51,780 nucleotides of DNA from a virus (taxonomy: Duplodnaviria; Heunggongvirae; Uroviricota; Caudoviricetes), in the IMG/VR virus record IMGVR_UViG_2541047930_000003. One strand, written 5' to 3'. Positions 11,933-48,522 of the stretch are shown here, piece after piece (within the stretch, counting starts at the first letter, position 1; the number at the start of each line of letters is the position of its first letter). The translations under genes and the position numbers were made by a program. Under the pieces are notes generated by a model. That model saw nothing but the letters and a program-made list of their open reading frames with translations. It ran no database searches and was not told where the DNA came from.

Positions 11933-12619
11933 ATGACCCCAATAAAAATATTTATGACTATTGCTGATTTCAAACGGCCTAAATTGGAGCTCCCAAACGG
12001 GGCAAACAAACTACTACTGCACTCTTGCTGTGCTCCATGTTCCGGTGAAGTGATGGAGGCGCTTCAGGCCTCGGGAATCGACTATACCATCTTTTTCTAC
12101 AACCCGAACATTCATCCTCAGAAAGAGTATTTAATTCGTAAGGATGAGAATATTCGCTTTGCTGAACAACACGGCGTGCCATTTATTGATGCTGATTACG
12201 ACACAGACAACTGGTTTGAACGTGCCAAAGGAATGGAATGGGAGCCCGAGAGGGGGATCCGTTGTACCATGTGTTTTGACATGCGTTTTGAGCGGACAGC
12301 GCTGTACGCTGCTGAAAATGGTTTCAGTGTGATCAGCAGTTCACTGGGCATTTCACGCTGGAAAAATATGCAGCAGGTTAACGACTGTGGGCGGCGAGCC
12401 GTCGCGCATTATCCGGGCATGGTGTACTGGGATTATAACTGGCGCAAGCAGGGCGGCTCGTCCCGCATGATTGAAATCAGCAAGCGCGAAAAATTCTATC
12501 AGCAGGAATATTGTGGCTGTGTGTATTCTCTGCGCGATACCAATCTACACCGCAAATCTCAGGGACGCCCTCTTATCAAAATTGGTCAACTCCACTACGG
12601 TAAAGAAGAGAAGGAGTGA
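11933..12619 (+). CDS. DUF208 / QueH-like protein (putative epoxyqueuosine reductase family, Fe-S), 228 aa
   Basis: N-terminal [11 protein letters not shown] motif, which I recall as the DUF208/QueH signature; further Cys (CTMCFD, YCGC); alternative start at 11954. Confidence 0.5.
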
Positions 12620-16197: not shown

Positions 16198-16273
<76 letters not shown>

Positions 16274-16276
16274 TAT

Positions 16277-16351
<75 letters not shown>

Positions 16352-18301: not shown

Positions 18302-18438
18302 AATCTTAACTACAATATGATTCATTTTGATGATTGTTTCATAAGGAACAGTGAAGTAAGATCTAAGATGAGTTAAATTTTATACAGTATAATCATAATG
18401 TTGCAGCAAGGTGGTTATAATTGAAAGAATATTTAGAT

Positions 18439-19896
18439 ATGAATACATCTCATGTAAGAGTTGTTACTCATATGTGTGGGTTCCTGGTTTGGCTCTATAG
18501 TCTTTCAATGTTGCCACCAATGGTTGTAGCATTGTTTTATAAAGAAAAAAGCCTGTTCGTTTTCTTTATAACTTTCGTTATATTTTTTTGCATTGGTGGC
18601 GGAGCGTGGTATACAACTAAGAAATCTGGTATTCAATTACGTACCCGTGATGGGTTTATTATAATTGTAATGTTTTGGATTTTGTTTTCTGTTATTAGTG
18701 CATTCCCTTTATGGATTGACTCAGAACTTAATTTAACGTTTATTGATGCTCTATTTGAAGGGGTTTCTGGAATAACAACAACAGGAGCAACTGTAATTGA
18801 TGATGTTAGTTCATTACCTCGGGCATATTTGTACTATCGGTCACAGTTAAATTTTATAGGTGGCTTAGGAGTTATTGTTCTGGCGGTTGCTGTATTGCCA
18901 TTATTGGGTATTGGTGGTGCAAAGCTTTATCAGTCAGAAATGCCAGGGCCATTTAAGGATGACAAACTTACTCCCCGCCTGGCCGATACGTCACGGACAC
19001 TTTGGATAACTTATTCTTTATTAGGTATTGCTTGTATTGTCTGTTATAGACTTGCAGGAATGCCTTTGTTTGATGCTATTTGTCACGGGATATCCACAGT
19101 TTCGCTTGGTGGTTTCTCAACTCATAGCGAGAGTATCGGATATTTTAATAACTATTTGGTTGAGCTGGTGGCTGGTTCTTTTTCCCTGCTATCGGCTTTC
19201 AACTTCACCCTTTGGTATATTGTTATTAGCAGGAAAACGTTAAAACCTTTAATCAGAGATATTGAACTTCGTTTCTTTCTGTTAATAGCCTTAGGGGTGA
19301 TCATTGTTACCTCTTTCCAGGTCTGGCATATAGGTATGTATGACTTGCCTGGAAGTTTTATTCATTCGTTTTTTCTTGCCAGCTCCATGCTCACTGATAA
19401 TGGTTTAGCTACGCAGGATTATGCAAACTGGCCCACGCACACGATAGTGTTTTTGCTGTTGTCAAGTTTCTTTGGGGGATGTATAGGTTCAACTTGTGGT
19501 GGAATTAAGTCACTTCGATTTCTTATACTTTTCAAACAAAGCAAACACGAGATAAACCAGCTTTCTCATCCCAGAGCGTTGTTGAGTGTAAATGTAGGAG
19601 GGAAGATAGTTACAGATCGTGTAATGAGGTCTGTATGGAGTTTCTTTTTTCTTTATACTCTCTTCACGGTGTTTTTTATACTGGTGTTAAATGGTATGGG
19701 ATATGATTTTCTTACATCATTTGCAACAGTGGCTGCATGTATTAATAATATGGGATTAGGTTTTGGGGCTACTGCATCGTCATTCGGAGTGCTTAATGAC
19801 ATTGCAAAATATTTAATGTGCATAGCTATGATTCTTGGTCGCCTTGAAATTTATCCTGTTATTATATTGTTTTCAGGTTTTTTTTGGCGCTCCTAA
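18439..19896 (+). CDS. trkG: TrkG potassium uptake protein (485 aa)
   Basis: Polytopic membrane protein recognised as Rac TrkG; Met7 of ORF 18421..19896; markedly AT-rich gene. Confidence 0.9.
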   Translation: MNTSHVRVVTHMCGFLVWLYSLSMLPPMVVALFYKEKSLFVFFITFVIFFCIGGGAWYTTKKSGIQLRTRDGFIIIVMFWILFSVISAFPLWIDSELNLTFIDALFEGVSGITTTGATVIDDVSSLPRAYLYYRSQLNFIGGLGVIVLAVAVLPLLGIGGAKLYQSEMPGPFKDDKLTPRLADTSRTLWITYSLLGIACIVCYRLAGMPLFDAICHGISTVSLGGFSTHSESIGYFNNYLVELVAGSFSLLSAFNFTLWYIVISRKTLKPLIRDIELRFFLLIALGVIIVTSFQVWHIGMYDLPGSFIHSFFLASSMLTDNGLATQDYANWPTHTIVFLLLSSFFGGCIGSTCGGIKSLRFLILFKQSKHEINQLSHPRALLSVNVGGKIVTDRVMRSVWSFFFLYTLFTVFFILVLNGMGYDFLTSFATVAACINNMGLGFGATASSFGVLNDIAKYLMCIAMILGRLEIYPVIILFSGFFWRS

Positions 19897-20033
19897 TATA
19901 TGGCTGATTTATAATTGTGAGTTTAATATTATATTGACTCACTCATTGATCCAATACCTAACTTTACCAGCAACACCTCCGCCCCCAGTAGCACTGGCTG
20001 CTGGGGTGCGTTTTATTCATAAAGCAAGGCTGT

Positions 20034-20825
20034 ATGAGCGAGAAATTGAAGATCGTCTATCGCCCTTTACAAGAACTGTCTCCGTATGCACACAACGCCA
20101 GGACACACAGCCCTGAGCAGGTGGCACAACTGGTAGAAAGCATTAAGCAATTCGGCTGGACTAATCCGGTGCTGATTGATGAAAAGGGCGAAATTATTGC
20201 TGGTCACGGTCGCGTTATGGCGGCTGAAGTGCTCAAAATGGATTCCATTCCGGTCATCGTTCTGTCTGGTTTGATGGATGATCAGAAAAAGGCGTACCGC
20301 CTGGCAGATAATCGCCTGCCGATGAATGCTGGCTGGGATGAAGATCTGTTACGGATGGAGCTGTCGGACCTAATCAATGCTGATTTTGATGTCTCCCTGA
20401 CAGGCTTCAGCCCGACAGAAATTGATGAACTGTTGACGGATGTTTTGCCCGGTACAGAAAATGAGGAGGAGCCGTATACGACGAAAATTGATACGCCTGT
20501 TTATGAGCCGTCGGGCGGTAAACCGGATATCAGTGAACTGTACGACGATACGAAAACTCAGGAGCTGATCAGCCGGATACGTTCGGCGTCTCTTGAGCCT
20601 GATATTGAGAAATTCCTCCTGTGTGCGGCAGAACGTCACACGGTGTTTAATTTCAGCAGAATTGCGGACTATTACGCTCACGCCCCCGCTGAAATTCAGT
20701 GTTTTTTCGAGGAGTCGGCGCTGGTGATCATTGATTATCAGCAGGCTATTGAAAATGGATTTGTCCGGATGACGCAGCGCATGGTGGAGATCATGCATGG
20801 TGGTGAGGAGGAGGAATATGCGTGA
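20034..20825 (+). CDS. ParB-like nuclease (ParB N-terminal) domain protein (263 aa), YnaK-like
   Basis: IAGHGRVMAA resembles ParB box II; ATG at 20034; C-terminal ~150 aa unassigned. Confidence 0.65.
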   Translation: MSEKLKIVYRPLQELSPYAHNARTHSPEQVAQLVESIKQFGWTNPVLIDEKGEIIAGHGRVMAAEVLKMDSIPVIVLSGLMDDQKKAYRLADNRLPMNAGWDEDLLRMELSDLINADFDVSLTGFSPTEIDELLTDVLPGTENEEEPYTTKIDTPVYEPSGGKPDISELYDDTKTQELISRIRSASLEPDIEKFLLCAAERHTVFNFSRIADYYAHAPAEIQCFFEESALVIIDYQQAIENGFVRMTQRMVEIMHGGEEEEYA

Positions 20826-21750
20826 TGATTTTTGCGCCTTTATTCTGACTCACGGGCGACCGGACAAAGTTCTGACTTACCGGACGTTGCGTCGTGCTGG
20901 CTATACCGGGAAAATTTTTATCGTTGTTGATGATGAAGATAAGACACGGCATCAGTACATGGCTGAATTTGGTGAACAGGTGCTGGTGTTTTCCAAAGCC
21001 GATATCGCCAGTCGTTTTGACGAAGCCGATAATTTCGGTGACCGCCGCTCAATTTTTTACGCCCGTAATGCCTGTTTCGACCTGGCAAAACTGGTCGGGT
21101 GTAAATACTTCATTCAGCTCGATGATGATTATCACGAGTTCCAGTTTCGGGTGGATCGCAACTATGACCAGGCCTATTTTCCGATAAGGAAACTGGATGC
21201 GATCCTTTCTGAAATGCTGGCGTACTACGAATCAATACCTGCTCTTTCCATCGCTATGTCGCAGGGCGGGGATTTTCTTGGTGACAATGGCGGCCATGCT
21301 TCGTGGGTAAAACGCAAGGCAATGAACAGCTTTATCTGTTCGGTTGACCGACCGTTCTCATTCATGGGGCGCATTAACGAGGATGTGAATACGTACACGA
21401 ATCTCGGTCGCCGTGGTGAATTGTTTATGACGATCGGTGCTGTCCAGTTAGGGCAGAAACAGACGCAGAAAAACAGCGGCGGAATGACCGAGCTGTATCT
21501 GGATTCCGGAACCTACGTTAAAAGTTTTTACTCCGTCATGTATGCGCCGTCGTGCGTAAAAATCTCACTGATGGGAGCCAGCCATAAACGCATTCACCAT
21601 CAGGTCACCTGGAACAACGCTGCAGTAAAAATCCTTCACGAAAAATACAGGAAGAAGACACCCTGCATATCAATAGGGGTGACAAATGATTCCGTATTCG
21701 AAAGTCGAGTCTCTGGCAGCGTGCCGGATGACTGCACAACAAATCGCTGA
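20818..21750 (+). CDS. Hypothetical protein with GT-A glycosyltransferase-like motifs (310 aa)
   Basis: FILTHGRP...IFIVVDDEDKTRH...KYFIQLDDDY resembles GT2 N-terminal strand, acidic patch and DXD motif; no TM helices; GAGGAG RBS; overlaps the ParB-like gene. Confidence 0.4.
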   Translation: MRDDFCAFILTHGRPDKVLTYRTLRRAGYTGKIFIVVDDEDKTRHQYMAEFGEQVLVFSKADIASRFDEADNFGDRRSIFYARNACFDLAKLVGCKYFIQLDDDYHEFQFRVDRNYDQAYFPIRKLDAILSEMLAYYESIPALSIAMSQGGDFLGDNGGHASWVKRKAMNSFICSVDRPFSFMGRINEDVNTYTNLGRRGELFMTIGAVQLGQKQTQKNSGGMTELYLDSGTYVKSFYSVMYAPSCVKISLMGASHKRIHHQVTWNNAAVKILHEKYRKKTPCISIGVTNDSVFESRVSGSVPDDCTTNR

Positions 21751-21937
21751 CGTTCTGGATGTTGATCTGAACCGACTGAAAGAAAATCGGGAAGCAATGA
21801 CAGATTTTTATGCGGCCATCCGTAAGGGCAGAGCGAAAGGTGAAGCCGAGTTACGGGCGGCATTGTTTAAGCTTGCCAGAAAAGGGGATGCCTTTGCTCT
21901 GCGCGAACTACTCAGGGTGGATAAAAATCAGGACTAA
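21728..21937 (+). CDS. Small hypothetical protein (69 aa) immediately upstream of terminase small subunit
   Basis: Met15 of ORF 21686..21937; helical, basic. Confidence 0.35.
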   Translation: MTAQQIADVLDVDLNRLKENREAMTDFYAAIRKGRAKGEAELRAALFKLARKGDAFALRELLRVDKNQD

Positions 21938-21940
21938 CTG

Positions 21941-23035
21941 ATGAGCAGACCGGACTGGGGGGCGTTGCAGCAGGAGTATATTGCTGAATACACCCGCTCC
22001 GGTATATCTCCGGTGGCATGGTGTGAAGCAAGGGGACTGAATTACGCAACAGCCCGTCGTTACATCAAAAAACCTCCGAAAAATGCGCAGACAGAAATGC
22101 GCAAAACTGCGCAAAAAAGTGCGCAGAAAAAATCTGCGCAGACTGCACAAAAGCGGAACGAAAAATCTCAGGAAAAAAAGCCAGTATTCGATGCGGGCCT
22201 GAATGAGGGCGACGCGGAGGAATTTTCGTTCTGTCCCGATGAATTCGGCATTTCTGACCAGCAGGCTAAGTTTGCGATGCTTGTTGCTCAGGGGAAAAAG
22301 CCGACAGAGGCGTACCGACTAGCCGGTTATGAGGGGCAAGGTGCGACAGCTAACAGCAACGCCAGTCGTATGCTTAGAAATGCCAGGGTTTTTCGCGCTA
22401 TCAGCTACTTCCGCAATCAGTACCAGAAACGCTATACCGCAGACCTGGATTTACTGGTGAGTCAGTTGATGGCCATTGTCCTGGCCGACCCCAATCAGCT
22501 TGCACAATTTCGCCGTGTTAACTGCCGTTATTGCTGGGGCGAGAATCATCTCTACCAGTGGCGCGATATAGCAGAATTCGACAAGGCAGCGGCGCAGGCT
22601 TCCAGAGATGGCAAACCCGAACCGGAATATGGAGGCCTCGGCTTTGTTGATAACGCCATACCCAATCCGGACTGCCCGAAGTGCTGCGGTGAGGGAACGG
22701 GACAGCTTTATATGGCTGATACCACTCTGCTTGATGGGGATGCGCGGCAATTATATGCAGGGGCAAAACTCGGAAAATTCGGCGTTGAGATCCTGCTGGA
22801 GGATAAGGCTGCCGCCCGGCGTGAATTGTTGCGTTTGCTTTCTGCTGGTGGGGCTTTATGTGCAGATAAGCGGCTACAGGAACTGGAAATTGAACGGCGC
22901 AGAATGGAAAACCAGAAGCTGCGCAAAGAGATCGAAACGGTGGAAGATAATGAACATCCCCAGCCTGTGGCGATCAATATTAATGTGGTTGATGCCAGAG
23001 TAAGGAGTGATGAAGATGATCTCTCCGACGCTTAA
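21941..23035 (+). CDS. Terminase small subunit (364 aa) with N-terminal HTH and C-terminal Cys-rich zinc-ribbon-like region
   Basis: GLNYATARRYIKK HTH typical of TerS; CxxC pairs (CRYCWGE, CPKCCGE); directly upstream of large terminase. Confidence 0.7.
   Translation: MSRPDWGALQQEYIAEYTRSGISPVAWCEARGLNYATARRYIKKPPKNAQTEMRKTAQKSAQKKSAQTAQKRNEKSQEKKPVFDAGLNEGDAEEFSFCPDEFGISDQQAKFAMLVAQGKKPTEAYRLAGYEGQGATANSNASRMLRNARVFRAISYFRNQYQKRYTADLDLLVSQLMAIVLADPNQLAQFRRVNCRYCWGENHLYQWRDIAEFDKAAAQASRDGKPEPEYGGLGFVDNAIPNPDCPKCCGEGTGQLYMADTTLLDGDARQLYAGAKLGKFGVEILLEDKAAARRELLRLLSAGGALCADKRLQELEIERRRMENQKLRKEIETVEDNEHPQPVAININVVDARVRSDEDDLSDA
22084..22140 (+). repeat. Five TGCGCA motifs at 10-15 bp spacing inside terS (candidate pac/terminase recognition array)
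   Basis: aaatgcgcagacagaaatgcgcaaaactgcgcaaaaaagtgcgcagaaaaaatctgcgca. Confidence 0.45.
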
Positions 23036-24317
23036 TGTGCCTCAGGCGCGATTTCTTTCAATGCCCCATAAATTTAAAGCCTATATTGCTGGTTTTGGCT
23101 CGGGCAAAACATGGGTTGGGTGTGGCGGCATATGCAAGGGGATTTGGGAGCATCCAGGTATAAATCAGGGATATTTTGCGCCAACGTATCCCCAAATTCG
23201 CGATATTTTTTACCCTACAGTGGAAGAAGTTGCTGCTGACTGGGGATTGAACGTAAAAATTAATGAGGGAAATAAAGAGGTTCACTTTTATTACGGACGC
23301 CAGTATCGGGGAACCACTATCTGCAGATCGATGGAGAAGCCACAAACGATCGTCGGTTTCAAAATTGGTAATGCGCTGGTGGATGAACTGGACATTTTGC
23401 CGAAGGAAAAAGCCAGAACGGCGTGGCGCAAGATAATTGCGCGTATGCGTTATAAGATTGATGGACTTCGCAACGGTATTGACGTTACAACCACGCCGGA
23501 AGGATTCAAATTTGTCTACGAGCAGTTTGTTAAAGCCGTGCGTGAAAAAACAGAGCTGGCCTCACTGTATGGTCTGGTGCAGGCATCTACTTTCGATAAT
23601 GAAAAGAACCTGCCAGCAGATTACATTCCTTCGCTTCTTGAATCATACCCTCCAGAGCTGATTAAAGCCTATCTTCGAGGACAGTTTACTAACCTGACAA
23701 GTGGTACTGTTTACCATCAGTTTGACCGGAAACTGAATAATTGCGAAGAAGTGGAGCAGCCAGGGGAGCCGATTTATATTGGGATGGATTTTAACGTTGG
23801 AAAGATGGCGGGGATCGTCCATGTGCTGCGTTTGGGGCTTCCATGTGCGGTAACTGAAATCATCAATGCCTACGATACGCCGGATATGATCCGCATCATT
23901 AAAGAACGCTTCTGGCTGTATGACGGGAATGATTACCGGAAAGTGAGGGAGATTTATATTTATCCAGATGCTTCCGGAGATTCCAGAAAATCAAGTAACG
24001 CAAGTACGACGGATATAGCCCAGCTTAAGCAGGCTGGTTTTAACGTTGTGGTGAACAGCTCGAACCCGCCAGTAAAAGATCGCGTTAACTCAATGAATGC
24101 AATGTTCTGCAATGCCAATGGTGAGCGTCGCTATAAAGTTAATGTGAAGCGTTGTCCGGTATATGCCGAATCTCTGGAGCAACAGGTCTGGGATGATAAG
24201 GGGGAGCCTGATAAAAAATCTGGCAATGATCACCCGAATGATGCCGGAGGTTATTTCATCGTTAAGCAATTCCCTATTGTCAAACCGACCGGAAGAGTCA
24301 CATCACTTCGGATTTAA
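23016..24317 (+). CDS. Terminase large subunit
   Basis: Walker A GFGSGKTW; 436-aa ORF; start chosen 8 nt after an AGGAG RBS (alternatives 23007 or 23010). Confidence 0.85.
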   Translation: MISPTLNVPQARFLSMPHKFKAYIAGFGSGKTWVGCGGICKGIWEHPGINQGYFAPTYPQIRDIFYPTVEEVAADWGLNVKINEGNKEVHFYYGRQYRGTTICRSMEKPQTIVGFKIGNALVDELDILPKEKARTAWRKIIARMRYKIDGLRNGIDVTTTPEGFKFVYEQFVKAVREKTELASLYGLVQASTFDNEKNLPADYIPSLLESYPPELIKAYLRGQFTNLTSGTVYHQFDRKLNNCEEVEQPGEPIYIGMDFNVGKMAGIVHVLRLGLPCAVTEIINAYDTPDMIRIIKERFWLYDGNDYRKVREIYIYPDASGDSRKSSNASTTDIAQLKQAGFNVVVNSSNPPVKDRVNSMNAMFCNANGERRYKVNVKRCPVYAESLEQQVWDDKGEPDKKSGNDHPNDAGGYFIVKQFPIVKPTGRVTSLRI

Positions 24318-46478: not shown

Positions 46479-46990
46479 AGTCATCATATCAGGGGAACAC
46501 AGCAGGGGCTGGTTTTACATAAAAAAGCCCACCAGTGAGGTGGGCAACAGGAATGATTAATTATCTCAAAGAGAAACATCATGTTTCTCTTTGCAACTTC
46601 TAACATGAAAATGTGGAGAAATAATGGAGTTTATATTAACTGGTGATTATGCAACCAACTTCTTATGCAAAACAATATAGTTATTTATACCTGACTGGTC
46701 TTATGCATACACCTAAACAGGTGTATTACGTAATGAAACAGACTGGCGAATATGTTTGAGCAAACTCCACTGAACCGCAGACGTTATGGTCATGTTGCAT
46801 AGTGTTTTGGAATATAAAGAATTATATATGAGTTCGCTGTTTGTAACCTGAAAAACAATAACGAATGTTATAATAAACTTGTTTGTTGTGCTGCTTTCAC
46901 ATTTTCTCATTAATCTTACCAGTAATATTTTTGTTGCTTTGTTGTTTCTGTTTTTTTATAAAAAAGAGGTGGTGCAGAGGAGGAAATATA

Positions 46991-47704
46991 GTGGATAAAA
47001 AACTAATTGCATTTTTGTGCACACTTATAATTACTGGTTGCTCGGATGGGATCGGTGATTCACCTTCGCCACCGGGAAAGAATGTAGAATTAGTCGGAAT
47101 TCCAGGGCAAGGTGTCGCTGTTGCTTCAAATGGCACATCTCCAACATTTGGGAGCAACAGTACTGACTTTCCTGATGTTTCAATAATGAGCACAGGGGGA
47201 GCGATGCTTACTGTTTGGGCCAGACCTGTCCGTAACTGGCTTTGGGGATATACTCCGTTTGATTCAGTAAGTTTTGGAGAGAATCGGAACTGGAAGGTTG
47301 TGGATGGTAAAGATGCCGGTACAGTGAAATTTGTTAATGTTGCCCAGGGGACTTGCATGGAGGCCTTTAAAAACGGGGTGATACATAATACCTGTGATGA
47401 TAATTCGTTATCTCAGGAGTTTCAGTTACTGCCTTCTACTAATGGTAATGTGCTTATAAGAAGTAGTGCCTTGCAGACGTGTATAAGAGCAGACTATTTA
47501 AGCAGAACTATACTGTCACCGTTTGCTTTTACAATCACCCTTGAGAAGTGTCCTGGTGCAAAAGAAGAAACGCAAGAAATGCTATGGGCAATAAGTCCAC
47601 CTGTCAGAGCGGCAAAACCAAATCTGATTAAACCAGAATTAAGACCATTCAGACCATTGCCAATTCCACCTCATGACAAACCTGATGGAATGGAGGGAGT
47701 ATGA
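46991..47704 (+). CDS. cdtA: Cytolethal distending toxin subunit A (lipoprotein, 237 aa)
   Basis: GTG start (Val37 of ORF 46883..47704) 7 nt after GAGGAGG RBS; lipobox LIITGCS; ricin-B-like CdtA sequence; 714 bp consistent with CDT-I cdtA. Confidence 0.88.
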   Translation: MDKKLIAFLCTLIITGCSDGIGDSPSPPGKNVELVGIPGQGVAVASNGTSPTFGSNSTDFPDVSIMSTGGAMLTVWARPVRNWLWGYTPFDSVSFGENRNWKVVDGKDAGTVKFVNVAQGTCMEAFKNGVIHNTCDDNSLSQEFQLLPSTNGNVLIRSSALQTCIRADYLSRTILSPFAFTITLEKCPGAKEETQEMLWAISPPVRAAKPNLIKPELRPFRPLPIPPHDKPDGMEGV

Positions 47705-48522
47705 AAAAATTATTATTCCTGTTAATGATTTTGCCGGGTATTTCTTTTGCAGATTTAAGCGACTTTAAAGTTGCAACCTGGAATTTGCAGGGCTCAAATG
47801 CACCGACAGAAAATAAATGGAACACACATGTTCGACAACTTGTCACGGGAAGTGGTGCTGTTGATATCCTGATGGTTCAGGAGGCTGGTTCAATACCATC
47901 TTCAGCTACACTAACGGAACGTGAATTTCGTACACCAGGTATCCCAATGAATGAGTATATCTGGAATACTGGAACGAATAGCCGTCCACAGCAGCTTTTT
48001 ATTTATTTTTCGCGAACTGATGCTCTTTCTAATAGAGTAAATTTAGCGATAGTATCTAACAGAAGAGCTGATGAGGTGATTGTATTATCACCTCCAACAG
48101 TGGCATCGCGTCCGATCATTGGAATAAGAATAGGTAATGATGTTTTCTTCTCAACTCATGCATTGGCAAACCGAGGTATAGATTCTGGAGCAATTGTTAA
48201 CAGTGTTTTTGAGTTTTTCAACAGACAAACAGATCCTATAAGACAGGCCGCTAACTGGATGATTGCAGGAGATTTCAACCGTTCACCTGCTATGTTATTT
48301 TCAACACTTGAGCCGGGAATCCGTAATCACGTGAATATTATTGCACCACCAGATCCAACGCAGGCCAGTGGTGGAGTGCTTGATTATGCTGTAGTTGGAA
48401 ACTCAGTGAGTTTTGTGCTTCCCCTGTTGAGGGCTTCGCTGTTATTTGGGTTGTTAAGAGGGCAAATTGCCTCTGATCACTTTCCGGTTGGCTTCATTCC
48501 CGGAAGAGGAGCTAGAAGATGA
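47701..48522 (+). CDS. cdtB: Cytolethal distending toxin subunit B (DNase I-like genotoxin, 273 aa)
   Basis: Signal peptide; DLSDFKVATWNLQGSNAP...DILMVQEAG CdtB signature; ATGA overlap with cdtA. Confidence 0.92.
   Translation: MKKLLFLLMILPGISFADLSDFKVATWNLQGSNAPTENKWNTHVRQLVTGSGAVDILMVQEAGSIPSSATLTEREFRTPGIPMNEYIWNTGTNSRPQQLFIYFSRTDALSNRVNLAIVSNRRADEVIVLSPPTVASRPIIGIRIGNDVFFSTHALANRGIDSGAIVNSVFEFFNRQTDPIRQAANWMIAGDFNRSPAMLFSTLEPGIRNHVNIIAPPDPTQASGGVLDYAVVGNSVSFVLPLLRASLLFGLLRGQIASDHFPVGFIPGRGARR

Follow-up and report, generated by a model that had tools for sequence, protein, structure and literature searches.

A ParB-fold protein and a TAGT glycosyltransferase encoded as a conserved pair ahead of phage packaging genes: a candidate late DNA glycosylation module in a Rac-like Escherichia coli prophage

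What is the role of two overlapping genes, one for a ParB-like protein and one for a putative glycosyltransferase (GT), that stand at the entrance to the packaging genes of a tailed phage? We studied this question in a window of 51,780 nucleotides (IMG/VR record IMGVR_UViG_2541047930_000003; the window is the whole stretch of DNA that was analysed), where the two open reading frames, hereafter ORF1 and ORF2, occupy positions 20034 to 21750. A preliminary description of this DNA, made from its letters, had proposed that the pair could be a DNA glycosylation or anti-restriction module. The folds, the family and the coupling of the two genes were established by our analysis, and the enzyme that usually makes the acceptor was not found; what stands of that proposal is DNA glycosylation as a plausible reading and the leading hypothesis only. 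We consider it very probable that the ORF1 and ORF2 proteins are a functional pair. A late, ParB-assisted, two-component DNA glycosylation module is the best reading of the locus, and its chances appear to us about even; that DNA is the substrate, taken by itself, we rate at even or slightly better. The pair and its parts are as follows (aa, amino acids; pLDDT, predicted local distance difference test; SD, Shine-Dalgarno sequence).

20034-20825, + strand: ORF1, 263 aa, carrying EIIAGHGRVMAA
20034..20438, + strand: ORF1 N-module (aa 1-135), a predicted ParB/Srx (ParB-CTPase-fold) nucleotide-binding domain plus a short helical segment (GWD..LL..EL...DFD.SLTGF..EID.LL)
20439..20543, + strand: ORF1 linker (aa 136-170), predicted to be disordered, pLDDT about 31
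20544..20825, + strand: ORF1 C-domain (aa 171-253), helical, with an acidic tail
20805..20825, + strand: translational-coupling junction, with the SD GAGGAGGAGG at 20805-14, the ORF2 ATG at 20818-20 and the ORF1 TGA at 20823-25
20818..21750, + strand: ORF2, 310 aa, a predicted GT-A fold glycosyltransferase of the TAGT family (PF20691)

The GT assignment of ORF2, which had rested on a motif pattern, was substantiated by profile and structure prediction. ORF2 scored 124.7 bits against Pfam TAGT (PF20691; cut-off 27.5; 6e-36), with residues 8-222 corresponding to profile positions 4-205 of 205, and matched phrog_842 at 1e-103. The annotation pipeline PGAP places its start at the same ATG (20818) and names it 'GREB1-related protein'. 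An AlphaFold2 (AF2) model made with 48 homologues had a pLDDT of 87.8 and a predicted template modelling (pTM) score of 0.84, and was poor only in the last ~20 residues; the C-terminal 25-30 aa form a lineage-specific, low-confidence tail that overlaps the next ORF. A sequence search returned no relatives in the PDB. Foldseek with the model gave 123 PDB matches at E<=1e-3, the best 50 of which were all glycosyltransferases, mostly classic GT-A enzymes, and the fold neighbours among the matches listed include K4CP, LH3/ColGalT1, SpsA, TarS, GnT-I, glycogenin and SunS. The T-even-type beta-glucosyl-HMC-alpha-glucosyltransferase (HMC, hydroxymethylcytosine) is a distant structural relative (rank 23, 13% identity), and viral models annotated TAGT in BFVD match ORF2 at template modelling scores of 0.6-0.85. 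In an alignment of 48 sequences, down to 38% identity, R14, D41, D102, D103, N187, D189, H260 and H261 are invariant and D104 is found in at least 90%; the motifs THGRP, IVVDDEDK and QLDDDY, to which the preliminary description had pointed, are present and fall on the invariant columns R14, D41 and D102/D103. ORF2 carries the R...DDD...(N)ED catalytic and donor-binding signature, and an R...DDD...ED signature has been reported for phage GT-A DNA glycosyltransferases (bioRxiv 10.1101/2023.12.21.572611). Profile and model together confirm ORF2 as a genuine GT-A enzyme that belongs to TAGT, a large family with 1334 representatives at 50% identity (E<=1e-3). ORF2 is basic, with an isoelectric point (pI) of 8.4-8.8 (GT family median 8.6), and is a member of a TET-independent TAGT clade with a ParB-type partner bearing the C-domain described below (ParB-Cdom), a new sub-clade.

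What, then, is the partner? The ParB N-terminal domain claimed for ORF1 held up: the protein scored 27.9 bits against Pfam ParB_N (PF02195; cut-off 26.3), the motif quoted for it, EIIAGHGRVMAA, is present, and the N-module matched ParB folds in Foldseek, namely Noc, ParB-CDP, PadC and KorB (E 1e-6 to 1e-5), with Srx also among the matches. AF2 modelled aa 11-130 with a pLDDT of about 80-94, and ORF1 matched phrog_620 at 3e-89; its N-terminal domain is, as modelled, a ParB/Srx fold. Measured against the ParB reference motifs (Box I Q-x-R, C-motif S..G, Box II G-E-R-R and Box III E-N), the nucleotide-site residues S36, G41, G57, R60 and N93 are kept, N21 and H58 stand in place of the catalytic Q and E, and R23 differs among family members. 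Residues 10-146 are the module with which phage N6/N4 DNA methyltransferases begin (PADLOC MTase_II, 1.8e-38; phrog_498, 2.5e-50), and in a fusion of ParB to an N6/N4 DNA methylase, at locus L089 of our survey, the N-terminus shares 41% identity with that of ORF1 (E 2e-25). The linker bears the motif Y148-T-x-K151-I-x-x-P155-x-Y157-E-P159...P164...L169, in which Y, P, Y and P are invariant across 45 and 23 diverse sequences. In the C-domain, F194, L195, H202, A211, Q222, E226, S228, V231, I232, D234, A238 and G242 are invariant; no relatives of this domain were found in Pfam or NCBIfam, and a PDB profile search gave only spurious matches to designed armadillo proteins. All family-invariant residues are present in the full 263-aa frame. 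ORF1 is strongly acidic (pI 4.46, net charge about -26; family median pI 4.5), and across the family the GT is basic and ORF1 acidic.

We ruled out ORF1 as a canonical partition ParB or a ParB nuclease: it has no helix-turn-helix (HTH) and no ParA, and it scored 36 against the partition-ParB model TIGR00180, below the cut-off of 58.45. No parA gene was found in the prophage and there is no parS context. A reading of the pair as a defence system was likewise rejected, PADLOC having matched nothing except the methylase-type N-module.

How closely are the two genes tied to each other? The overlap and ribosome-binding site noted earlier are as described, with the SD GAGGAGGAGG 3 nt before the ATG of the 310-aa ORF2 and an overlap of 8 nt with the ORF1 stop. 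In loci anchored on the GT, a full-length ORF1 homologue lies upstream on the same strand in 88 of 89, and the 89th begins at the GT on a contig edge; stop and start overlap by 4-20 nt in 84 of the 88 partnered loci, mostly by 4, 8 or 11 nt. Loci found with a profile of the C-domain showed a TAGT GT downstream in all 78 new cases (the locus set collapses to roughly 50 non-redundant lineages at 80% GT identity). All occurrences of the C-domain are next to GTs of this clade, some of them joined to ParB_N and others forming proteins of ~130 aa on their own; these small proteins lie 5' of the GT in L082, L084, L162, L173 and, with an hhalign probability of 100%, in the 191-kb Vibrio phage pv27, where the C-domain-plus-GT pair sits amid primase, exonuclease and helicase genes. 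In L174 (1850-4418), ParB_N and the C-domain are separate overlapping ORFs. The conserved core is the linker, the C-domain and the GT, and in Mantel comparisons the divergence of the GT follows that of the C-domain (r 0.54, p 0.001) more than that of the N-domain (r 0.25).

The pair is present in phages of Enterobacteria, Lactobacillus, Porphyromonas, Vibrio and Nocardia and in a haloarchaeal virus. The Porphyromonas phage keeps the pairing at 27% GT identity, in the order ParB-GT-TerS-TerL (TerS and TerL, small and large terminase). The haloarchaeal tailed virus HHTV-2 (L168 4196-5858) carries a ParB-Cdom/TAGT pair with 43% GT identity and an overlap of 11 nt, indicating that the module spans the boundary between bacteria and archaea. 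The ratio of nonsynonymous to synonymous substitution rates (dN/dS) was about 0.07-0.14 for ORF1 and ORF2, an approximate figure since dS was saturated in most comparisons, and both genes are under purifying selection. The gene arrangement is far beyond chance, and cooperation of ORF1 with ORF2 is strongly supported by the strict reciprocal synteny, the conserved stop/start overlap and the domain fusions.

Does the position of the pair say when it is used? The genes on either side of it are these (GC, guanine plus cytosine content).

18421-19896, + strand: trkG moron (TrkH family K+ transporter), GC 0.37, between the lysis cassette and ORF1
19983..20016 (stem part 19983-20006), + strand: intrinsic-terminator-like hairpin with a T-run, after trkG and 28 nt 5' of ORF1
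21686/21728-21937, + strand: small TerS-like ORF, 69-83 aa, with a partial TerS profile match (phrog_309, 8e-23), overlapping the C-terminal tail of the GT
21941-23035, + strand: small terminase, 364 aa (phrog_51, Pfam Terminase_2)
about 23007-24317, + strand: large terminase (Pfam Terminase_6N and Terminase_6C, 3.7e-33 and 5.8e-11)

The pair had been placed directly upstream of the terminase, which is nearly right: the 69-83 aa TerS-like ORF lies between the GT and the 364-aa small terminase. This small ORF (21686-21937) may be a split or accessory TerS DNA-binding module. The GC of the ORF1/ORF2 pair (0.49) equals that of the structural genes, as opposed to 0.37 for trkG, and the hairpin behind trkG, with a 10-bp stem that includes 7 GC pairs, is the best such site within 16.5-23.2 kb. 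Since the composition of the pair matches the structural genes and the terminator closes trkG, the pair is part of the phage backbone, and the sequence implies that ORF1 and ORF2 would be read from an antiterminated late transcript together with the packaging genes. In the surveyed loci TerS/TerL are almost always downstream of the pair, and in the complete 31.8-kb genome of Lactobacillus phage c5 the pair comprises the first genes past cos. Four unrelated TerL families follow it, Terminase_6N in the window, TerL_ATPase PF03354 (L002, L004), GpA PF05876 (L008, L061) and Terminase_3 PF04466 (L054 to L076), indicating that the module was recruited repeatedly to the entrance of the packaging operon, whichever packaging machine is used. 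At L073 (7255-9474), the Terminase_3 large terminase 3' of the pair bears an intein (Intein_splicing, 9.5e-9).

The mechanism that we propose runs as follows. The pair would be transcribed late, on the message of the packaging genes, and its likeliest target would be replicated phage DNA just before packaging. ORF2, a basic and soluble GT-A protein, would be the catalyst that transfers sugar from a nucleotide-sugar donor to the acceptor. ORF1 would serve as a dedicated acidic adaptor or activator of ParB-CTPase fold, whose linker motif and C-domain may dock the GT and whose N-module may enable or time the action of the GT on double-stranded DNA, as phage ParB does for thymine dioxygenases. The proposed role is protection from, or evasion of, host nucleases. 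We infer the physical interaction of ORF1 with ORF2, the DNA substrate and the anti-nuclease role alike.

Further enzymes are joined to this core in relatives. TAGT relatives at 47-56% identity are fused to a carbohydrate-type sulfotransferase (PF03567), to S-adenosylmethionine (SAM) methyltransferases (one recurring type), to a P-loop kinase-like domain or to a second GT-A domain (P0285, P0250/P0252/P0283/P0287, P0275/P0304/P0316 and P0266/P0268). Several loci have a gene for a His-phosphatase plus nucleotidyltransferase between the partner and the GT, and in L157 (3078-4760) this enzyme forms a fusion with ParB-Cdom. A GT4 gene lies just 5' of the pair in some loci, and in L089 the gene of the ParB-DNA methylase lies directly 5'. 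Judged by domain content, these elaborations look like a glycan-building pathway anchored on the ParB-Cdom protein, and the fusions suggest a diverse family of glycan-decorating pathways.

To what would the sugar be attached? To our knowledge, phage DNA glycosylation is known solely on hydroxymethylated pyrimidines, and we know of no GT-A enzyme that glycosylates canonical DNA bases. No TET/5mYOX, C5-methylase, thymidylate-synthase-like hydroxymethylase or alpha/beta-GT was found in the prophage, as judged by annotation and by Pfam searches of unannotated and large ORFs, and none of these is annotated in the complete c5 genome. Among 133 upstream ORFs of 46 non-redundant loci, a Pfam census (best 25 of 64 families) showed only lysis, replication and HNH genes and no recurrence of TET/JBP. 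Characterised TAGTs act on phage DNA and require a hydroxymethylated base or a sugar that is already on the base (PMC13216743). Because the module is self-contained and has no hydroxymethyl-base enzyme, the acceptor cannot be a phage-made hydroxymethylpyrimidine; since no hydroxymethyl group is supplied, a DNA substrate would require a chemistry unlike any DNA glycosylation so far known. In that case a ParB-activated DNA GT would add sugar straight onto unmodified DNA without prior hydroxymethylation, a possibility that we put forward tentatively and regard as doubtful, and for which the acceptor could be an exocyclic amine on one of the canonical bases, or else a position in the backbone or at a terminus.

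The lack of an acceptor pathway and of a precedent on canonical bases weighs against a DNA substrate, and further observations lie on the same side of the balance. ORF1 departs from canonical ParB at both catalytic positions (Q to N21 and E to H58), and R23 is variable across the family. Domain searches revealed no HTH or other recognisable DNA-binding domain in ORF1, the protein is strongly acidic, and AF2 confidence was low for its C-half. In the ParB of thymine dioxygenases, mutation of nucleotide-binding residues had little effect (PMC13229309). GREB1, an animal relative of TAGT, attaches O-linked N-acetylglucosamine (O-GlcNAc) to protein and not to DNA (PMC7968844), and we found no experimental work on a ParB-Cdom/TAGT pair in the searchable literature.

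Several of these points lend themselves to other readings. The GT might O-glycosylate protein, either the ORF1 linker on its invariant Tyr/Thr/Ser residues, in the manner of glycogenin or of glycocin enzymes, or a neighbouring packaging or virion protein. The linker is predicted to be disordered and yet keeps Y148, a T149-like residue and Y157 in Ser/Thr-rich surroundings, and the minimal unit is linker, C-domain and GT, at times without ParB_N. The O-GlcNAcylation of protein by GREB1 (PMC7968844), the presence of glycogenin and of SunS/ThuS peptide glycosyltransferases among GT-A fold neighbours, the loss of the usual DNA acceptor when no hydroxymethyl base is supplied, and fused methyl-, sulfo- and second glycosyltransferases that would suit glycan elaboration on any macromolecule all agree with a protein acceptor. 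We nevertheless think it unlikely: the ORF1 N-module is shared with DNA methylase fusions, there is direct precedent for a ParB that activates a DNA-modifying enzyme (PMC13229309), characterised phage TAGTs act on DNA, and the four unrelated terminase/capsid systems that follow the pair leave no single structural protein as a conserved acceptor. A small molecule is a less probable target still. Here the ParB fold would bind a nucleoside triphosphate (NTP), a signalling nucleotide or a nucleoside diphosphate (NDP)-sugar, and the GT would glycosylate a nucleotide or metabolite, for instance so as to disarm a host immune signal or make a special precursor; ParB-CTPase folds do bind CTP, ATP or GTP in many non-partition contexts (PMC12704722), ORF1 retains the phosphate- or base-contacting R60, S36, G41 and N93 and is without a DNA-binding domain, and the His-phosphatase plus nucleotidyltransferase accompanies some loci, to the point of fusion with ParB-Cdom in L157. 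Against this, counter-defence is as a rule an early need, with which late expression beside the terminase fits poorly; R23 varies within the family, the methylase-type N-module was the only match to PADLOC or anti-defence families, and the nucleotidyltransferase is explained more simply as a maker of the donor sugar.

Lysogenic conversion of the cell envelope, in which a soluble prophage GT-A would decorate a host surface polymer against superinfection as S. aureus TarP does, appears very improbable to us. Phage GT-A enzymes of such type do resemble TarP structurally (bioRxiv 10.1101/2023.12.21.572611), TarS and other cell-wall GTs are among the fold matches of ORF2, and the prophage bears other morons (trkG, cdtABC and QueH); but the pair, unlike the low-GC trkG moron, has late-gene GC and a place in the late operon past a terminator, membrane partners of the Gtr type are missing, and an obligatory ParB-type partner next to the terminase has no rationale in envelope modification. 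The pair is carried, moreover, by phage c5 (no integrase annotated in the record), by the 191-kb Vibrio phage and by the archaeal virus. The most sceptical view would hold that the genes are unrelated or decayed, so that ORF1 would have a partition or nuclease function, or be a pseudogene like ynaK, and ORF2 would be a moron that is inactive or has no tie to ORF1. In several genomes PGAP indeed tags the locus of ORF1 as 'ynaK, incomplete, missing C-terminus', K-12 has merely an 87-aa YnaK, and the ParB_N score barely exceeds the Pfam threshold. Set against this, ORF1 is open here over 263 aa with all family-invariant residues, the pseudogene label appears to derive from comparison with the truncated K-12 protein, both genes have a dN/dS of 0.07-0.14 with reciprocal synteny and overlaps conserved across phyla, and there is neither a ParA/parS context nor a TIGR00180 score (36 vs 58.45) to support a partition protein; we give this view hardly any credence. 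Late glycosylation of DNA by ORF2 with the help of ORF1 is the reading that we prefer.

In what kind of element does the pair reside? The window is an intact Rac-like lambdoid E. coli prophage inserted beside ttcA, with the gene order int-xis-recET-kil-sieB-immunity-replication-Q-like-tRNAs-lysis-trkG-ORF1-ORF2-terminase-portal-capsid-tail and with cdtABC at the right end. Its further features include the following.

11954-12619, + strand: QueH homologue (epoxyqueuosine reductase; PF02677, 1.8e-65), in the early-right region
46883-47704, + strand: cdtA (Pfam CDtoxinA)
47701-48522, + strand: cdtB (Pfam Exo_endo_phos)
48519-49091, + strand: cdtC (Pfam CDtoxinA)

A complete cytolethal distending toxin (CDT) operon thus lies at 46883-49091 (+ strand), 3' of the tail-fibre genes, and its completeness makes the prophage a CDT-converting phage. 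Phage-borne tRNA-Thr(TGT) and tRNA-Gly(TCC) genes are found at 16198-16351 (+ strand), 5' of the lysis genes. E. coli itself has QueG. We considered a tie between QueH and the GT, by way of glycosylated queuosine-tRNA or 7-deazaguanine DNA, and dropped it: QueH is 8 kb off in the early region, there is no TGT/DpdA, and QueH is missing from the other loci.

Comparison with K-12 probably explains how ORF1 came to be labelled. The Rac ynaK gene of K-12 (87 aa) corresponds to the initial ~86 codons of ORF1 and likewise follows trkG; ynaK is directly followed there by ydaY, everything from mid-ORF1 to the tail region having been lost, including the GT, terminase, portal and capsid genes. In the intact prophage ydaY is a gene of the tail region (L001 31941-32300), 11 kb further on and unrelated to the GT. 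Rac ynaK of K-12 is a truncated remnant of ORF1 and ydaY is no remnant of the GT, so that the suggestion that the pair might match defective ynaK/ydaY remnants had the relation backwards: K-12 ynaK is what the Rac deletion left of ORF1. PGAP/RefSeq labels L001 20135-20392 (window 20034-20291) as a pseudogene, 'ynaK, incomplete, missing C-terminus', and does so in several genomes; on an intact ORF1 this label seems to be false and to have arisen because the reference was the truncated protein of K-12, and the mis-annotation is likely to be systematic across many E. coli genomes. A 3.2-kb segment containing the pair and TerS matches 1621 of 5426 complete E. coli genomes (about 30%), and in 839 the match extends along 80% or more of the segment. 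E. coli 042 and APEC O1 carry the intact pair, and K-12 is a natural null.

These observations bear on more than one prophage. A large clade of 'solitary' TAGTs is not truly solitary: it always has a dedicated ParB-type partner and a place at the entrance of the packaging module, with no hydroxylase found. If DNA is modified, the acceptor would be new, and the principle of activation by ParB would extend from dioxygenases to glycosyltransferases. Should the sugar go onto unmodified DNA, a new DNA-modification chemistry would be present in about 30% of complete E. coli genomes, and in phages of many phyla and of archaea, and some relatives would go on to methylate, sulfate, phosphorylate or extend the sugar. 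If protein is modified instead, the pair would represent a widespread phage protein-glycosylation system with a ParB-fold subunit. The Rac-like prophage of E. coli is a genetically easy system for the question of the solitary TAGTs, and the frequency of the pair in E. coli bears on restriction barriers, on phage therapy and on modified-base signals in sequencing.

How does the pair compare with known systems? The closest precedent for its proposed division of labour is the 5mYOX176/ParB176 system, in which 5mYOX176 depends on a phage ParB, with cognate specificity, for the oxidation of T in double-stranded DNA (O'Toole et al., PNAS 2026, PMC13229309). ParB176 begins with a nucleotide-binding domain; a short helical segment and a disordered linker of roughly 50 aa lead on to its C-terminal domain, and it has no DNA-binding domain. 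Genes of its type adjoin that of an enzyme which modifies DNA after replication, and GTs and terminases are often close by (PMC13229309). ORF1 shares with it the domain layout in the AF2 model, the N-x-R...S...R pattern of residues mutated in ParB176 and a gene that adjoins that of the cognate enzyme. The two systems differ in that the partner here is a GT-A glycosyltransferase, with no dioxygenase found, that the highly conserved C-domain of ORF1 has been seen solely alongside this clade of GTs, and that the dependence of the GT on ORF1 is our inference.

A second likeness is with fusions of ParB_N to DNA methyltransferases (phrog_498; PADLOC MTase_II; the ParB-MTase of a B. cereus prophage, PMC3592412), which have the ~135-aa N-module and the terminase-adjacent habitat of ORF1. 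ParB-CTPase folds fused to DNA methylases in prophages, and binding various NTPs, were also surveyed in PNAS in 2025 (PMC12704722). The fusions carry out late post-replicative DNA modification, to which the role proposed for the pair may be likened by analogy. Unlike them, ORF1 continues from the module into a linker and C-domain, and its enzyme, a GT instead of a methylase, is a polypeptide of its own under translational coupling. With the partition proteins Spo0J, Noc and KorB, ORF1 has in common the fold of the N-domain and the GxxR, S..G and (D/E)N positions; it differs from partition ParB in having no HTH and no ParA/parS, in scoring below the TIGR00180 cut-off, in the replacement of the catalytic E and Q and in its strong acidity.

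On the side of the enzyme, ORF2 resembles the T2/T6 and TET-associated TAGTs in Pfam family, GT-A fold, R...DDD...(N)ED motif and phage origin. The T2/T6 beta-glucosyl-HMC-alpha-glucosyltransferase adds a second glucose onto alpha-glucosyl-5-hydroxymethylcytosine (5hmC) and the TET-associated GTs act on 5hmC, whereas this prophage is without a pathway for hydroxymethylcytosine (hmC) or hydroxymethyluracil (hmU) and without an alpha- or beta-GT. With no hmC pathway or alpha-GT in the prophage, ORF2 should not be named functionally after its PHROG label, 'beta-glucosyl-HMC-alpha-glucosyltransferase'. As cited in PMC8256090 and PMC13229309, Iyer et al. 2013 defined TAGT computationally and suggested that, during packaging, ParB proteins guide the enzymes of modification to DNA. 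Mined GTs were later found to adjoin ParB-like genes and terminases, with about 65% of GT contigs having no neighbouring base-modification enzyme (bioRxiv 10.1101/2023.12.21.572611), and 288 of 753 GT-bearing phages were reported to carry solitary, functionally unexplained TAGTs (2026 NAR, PMC13216743). ORF2 falls in this solitary group, in a sub-clade that has an obligatory ParB-Cdom partner.

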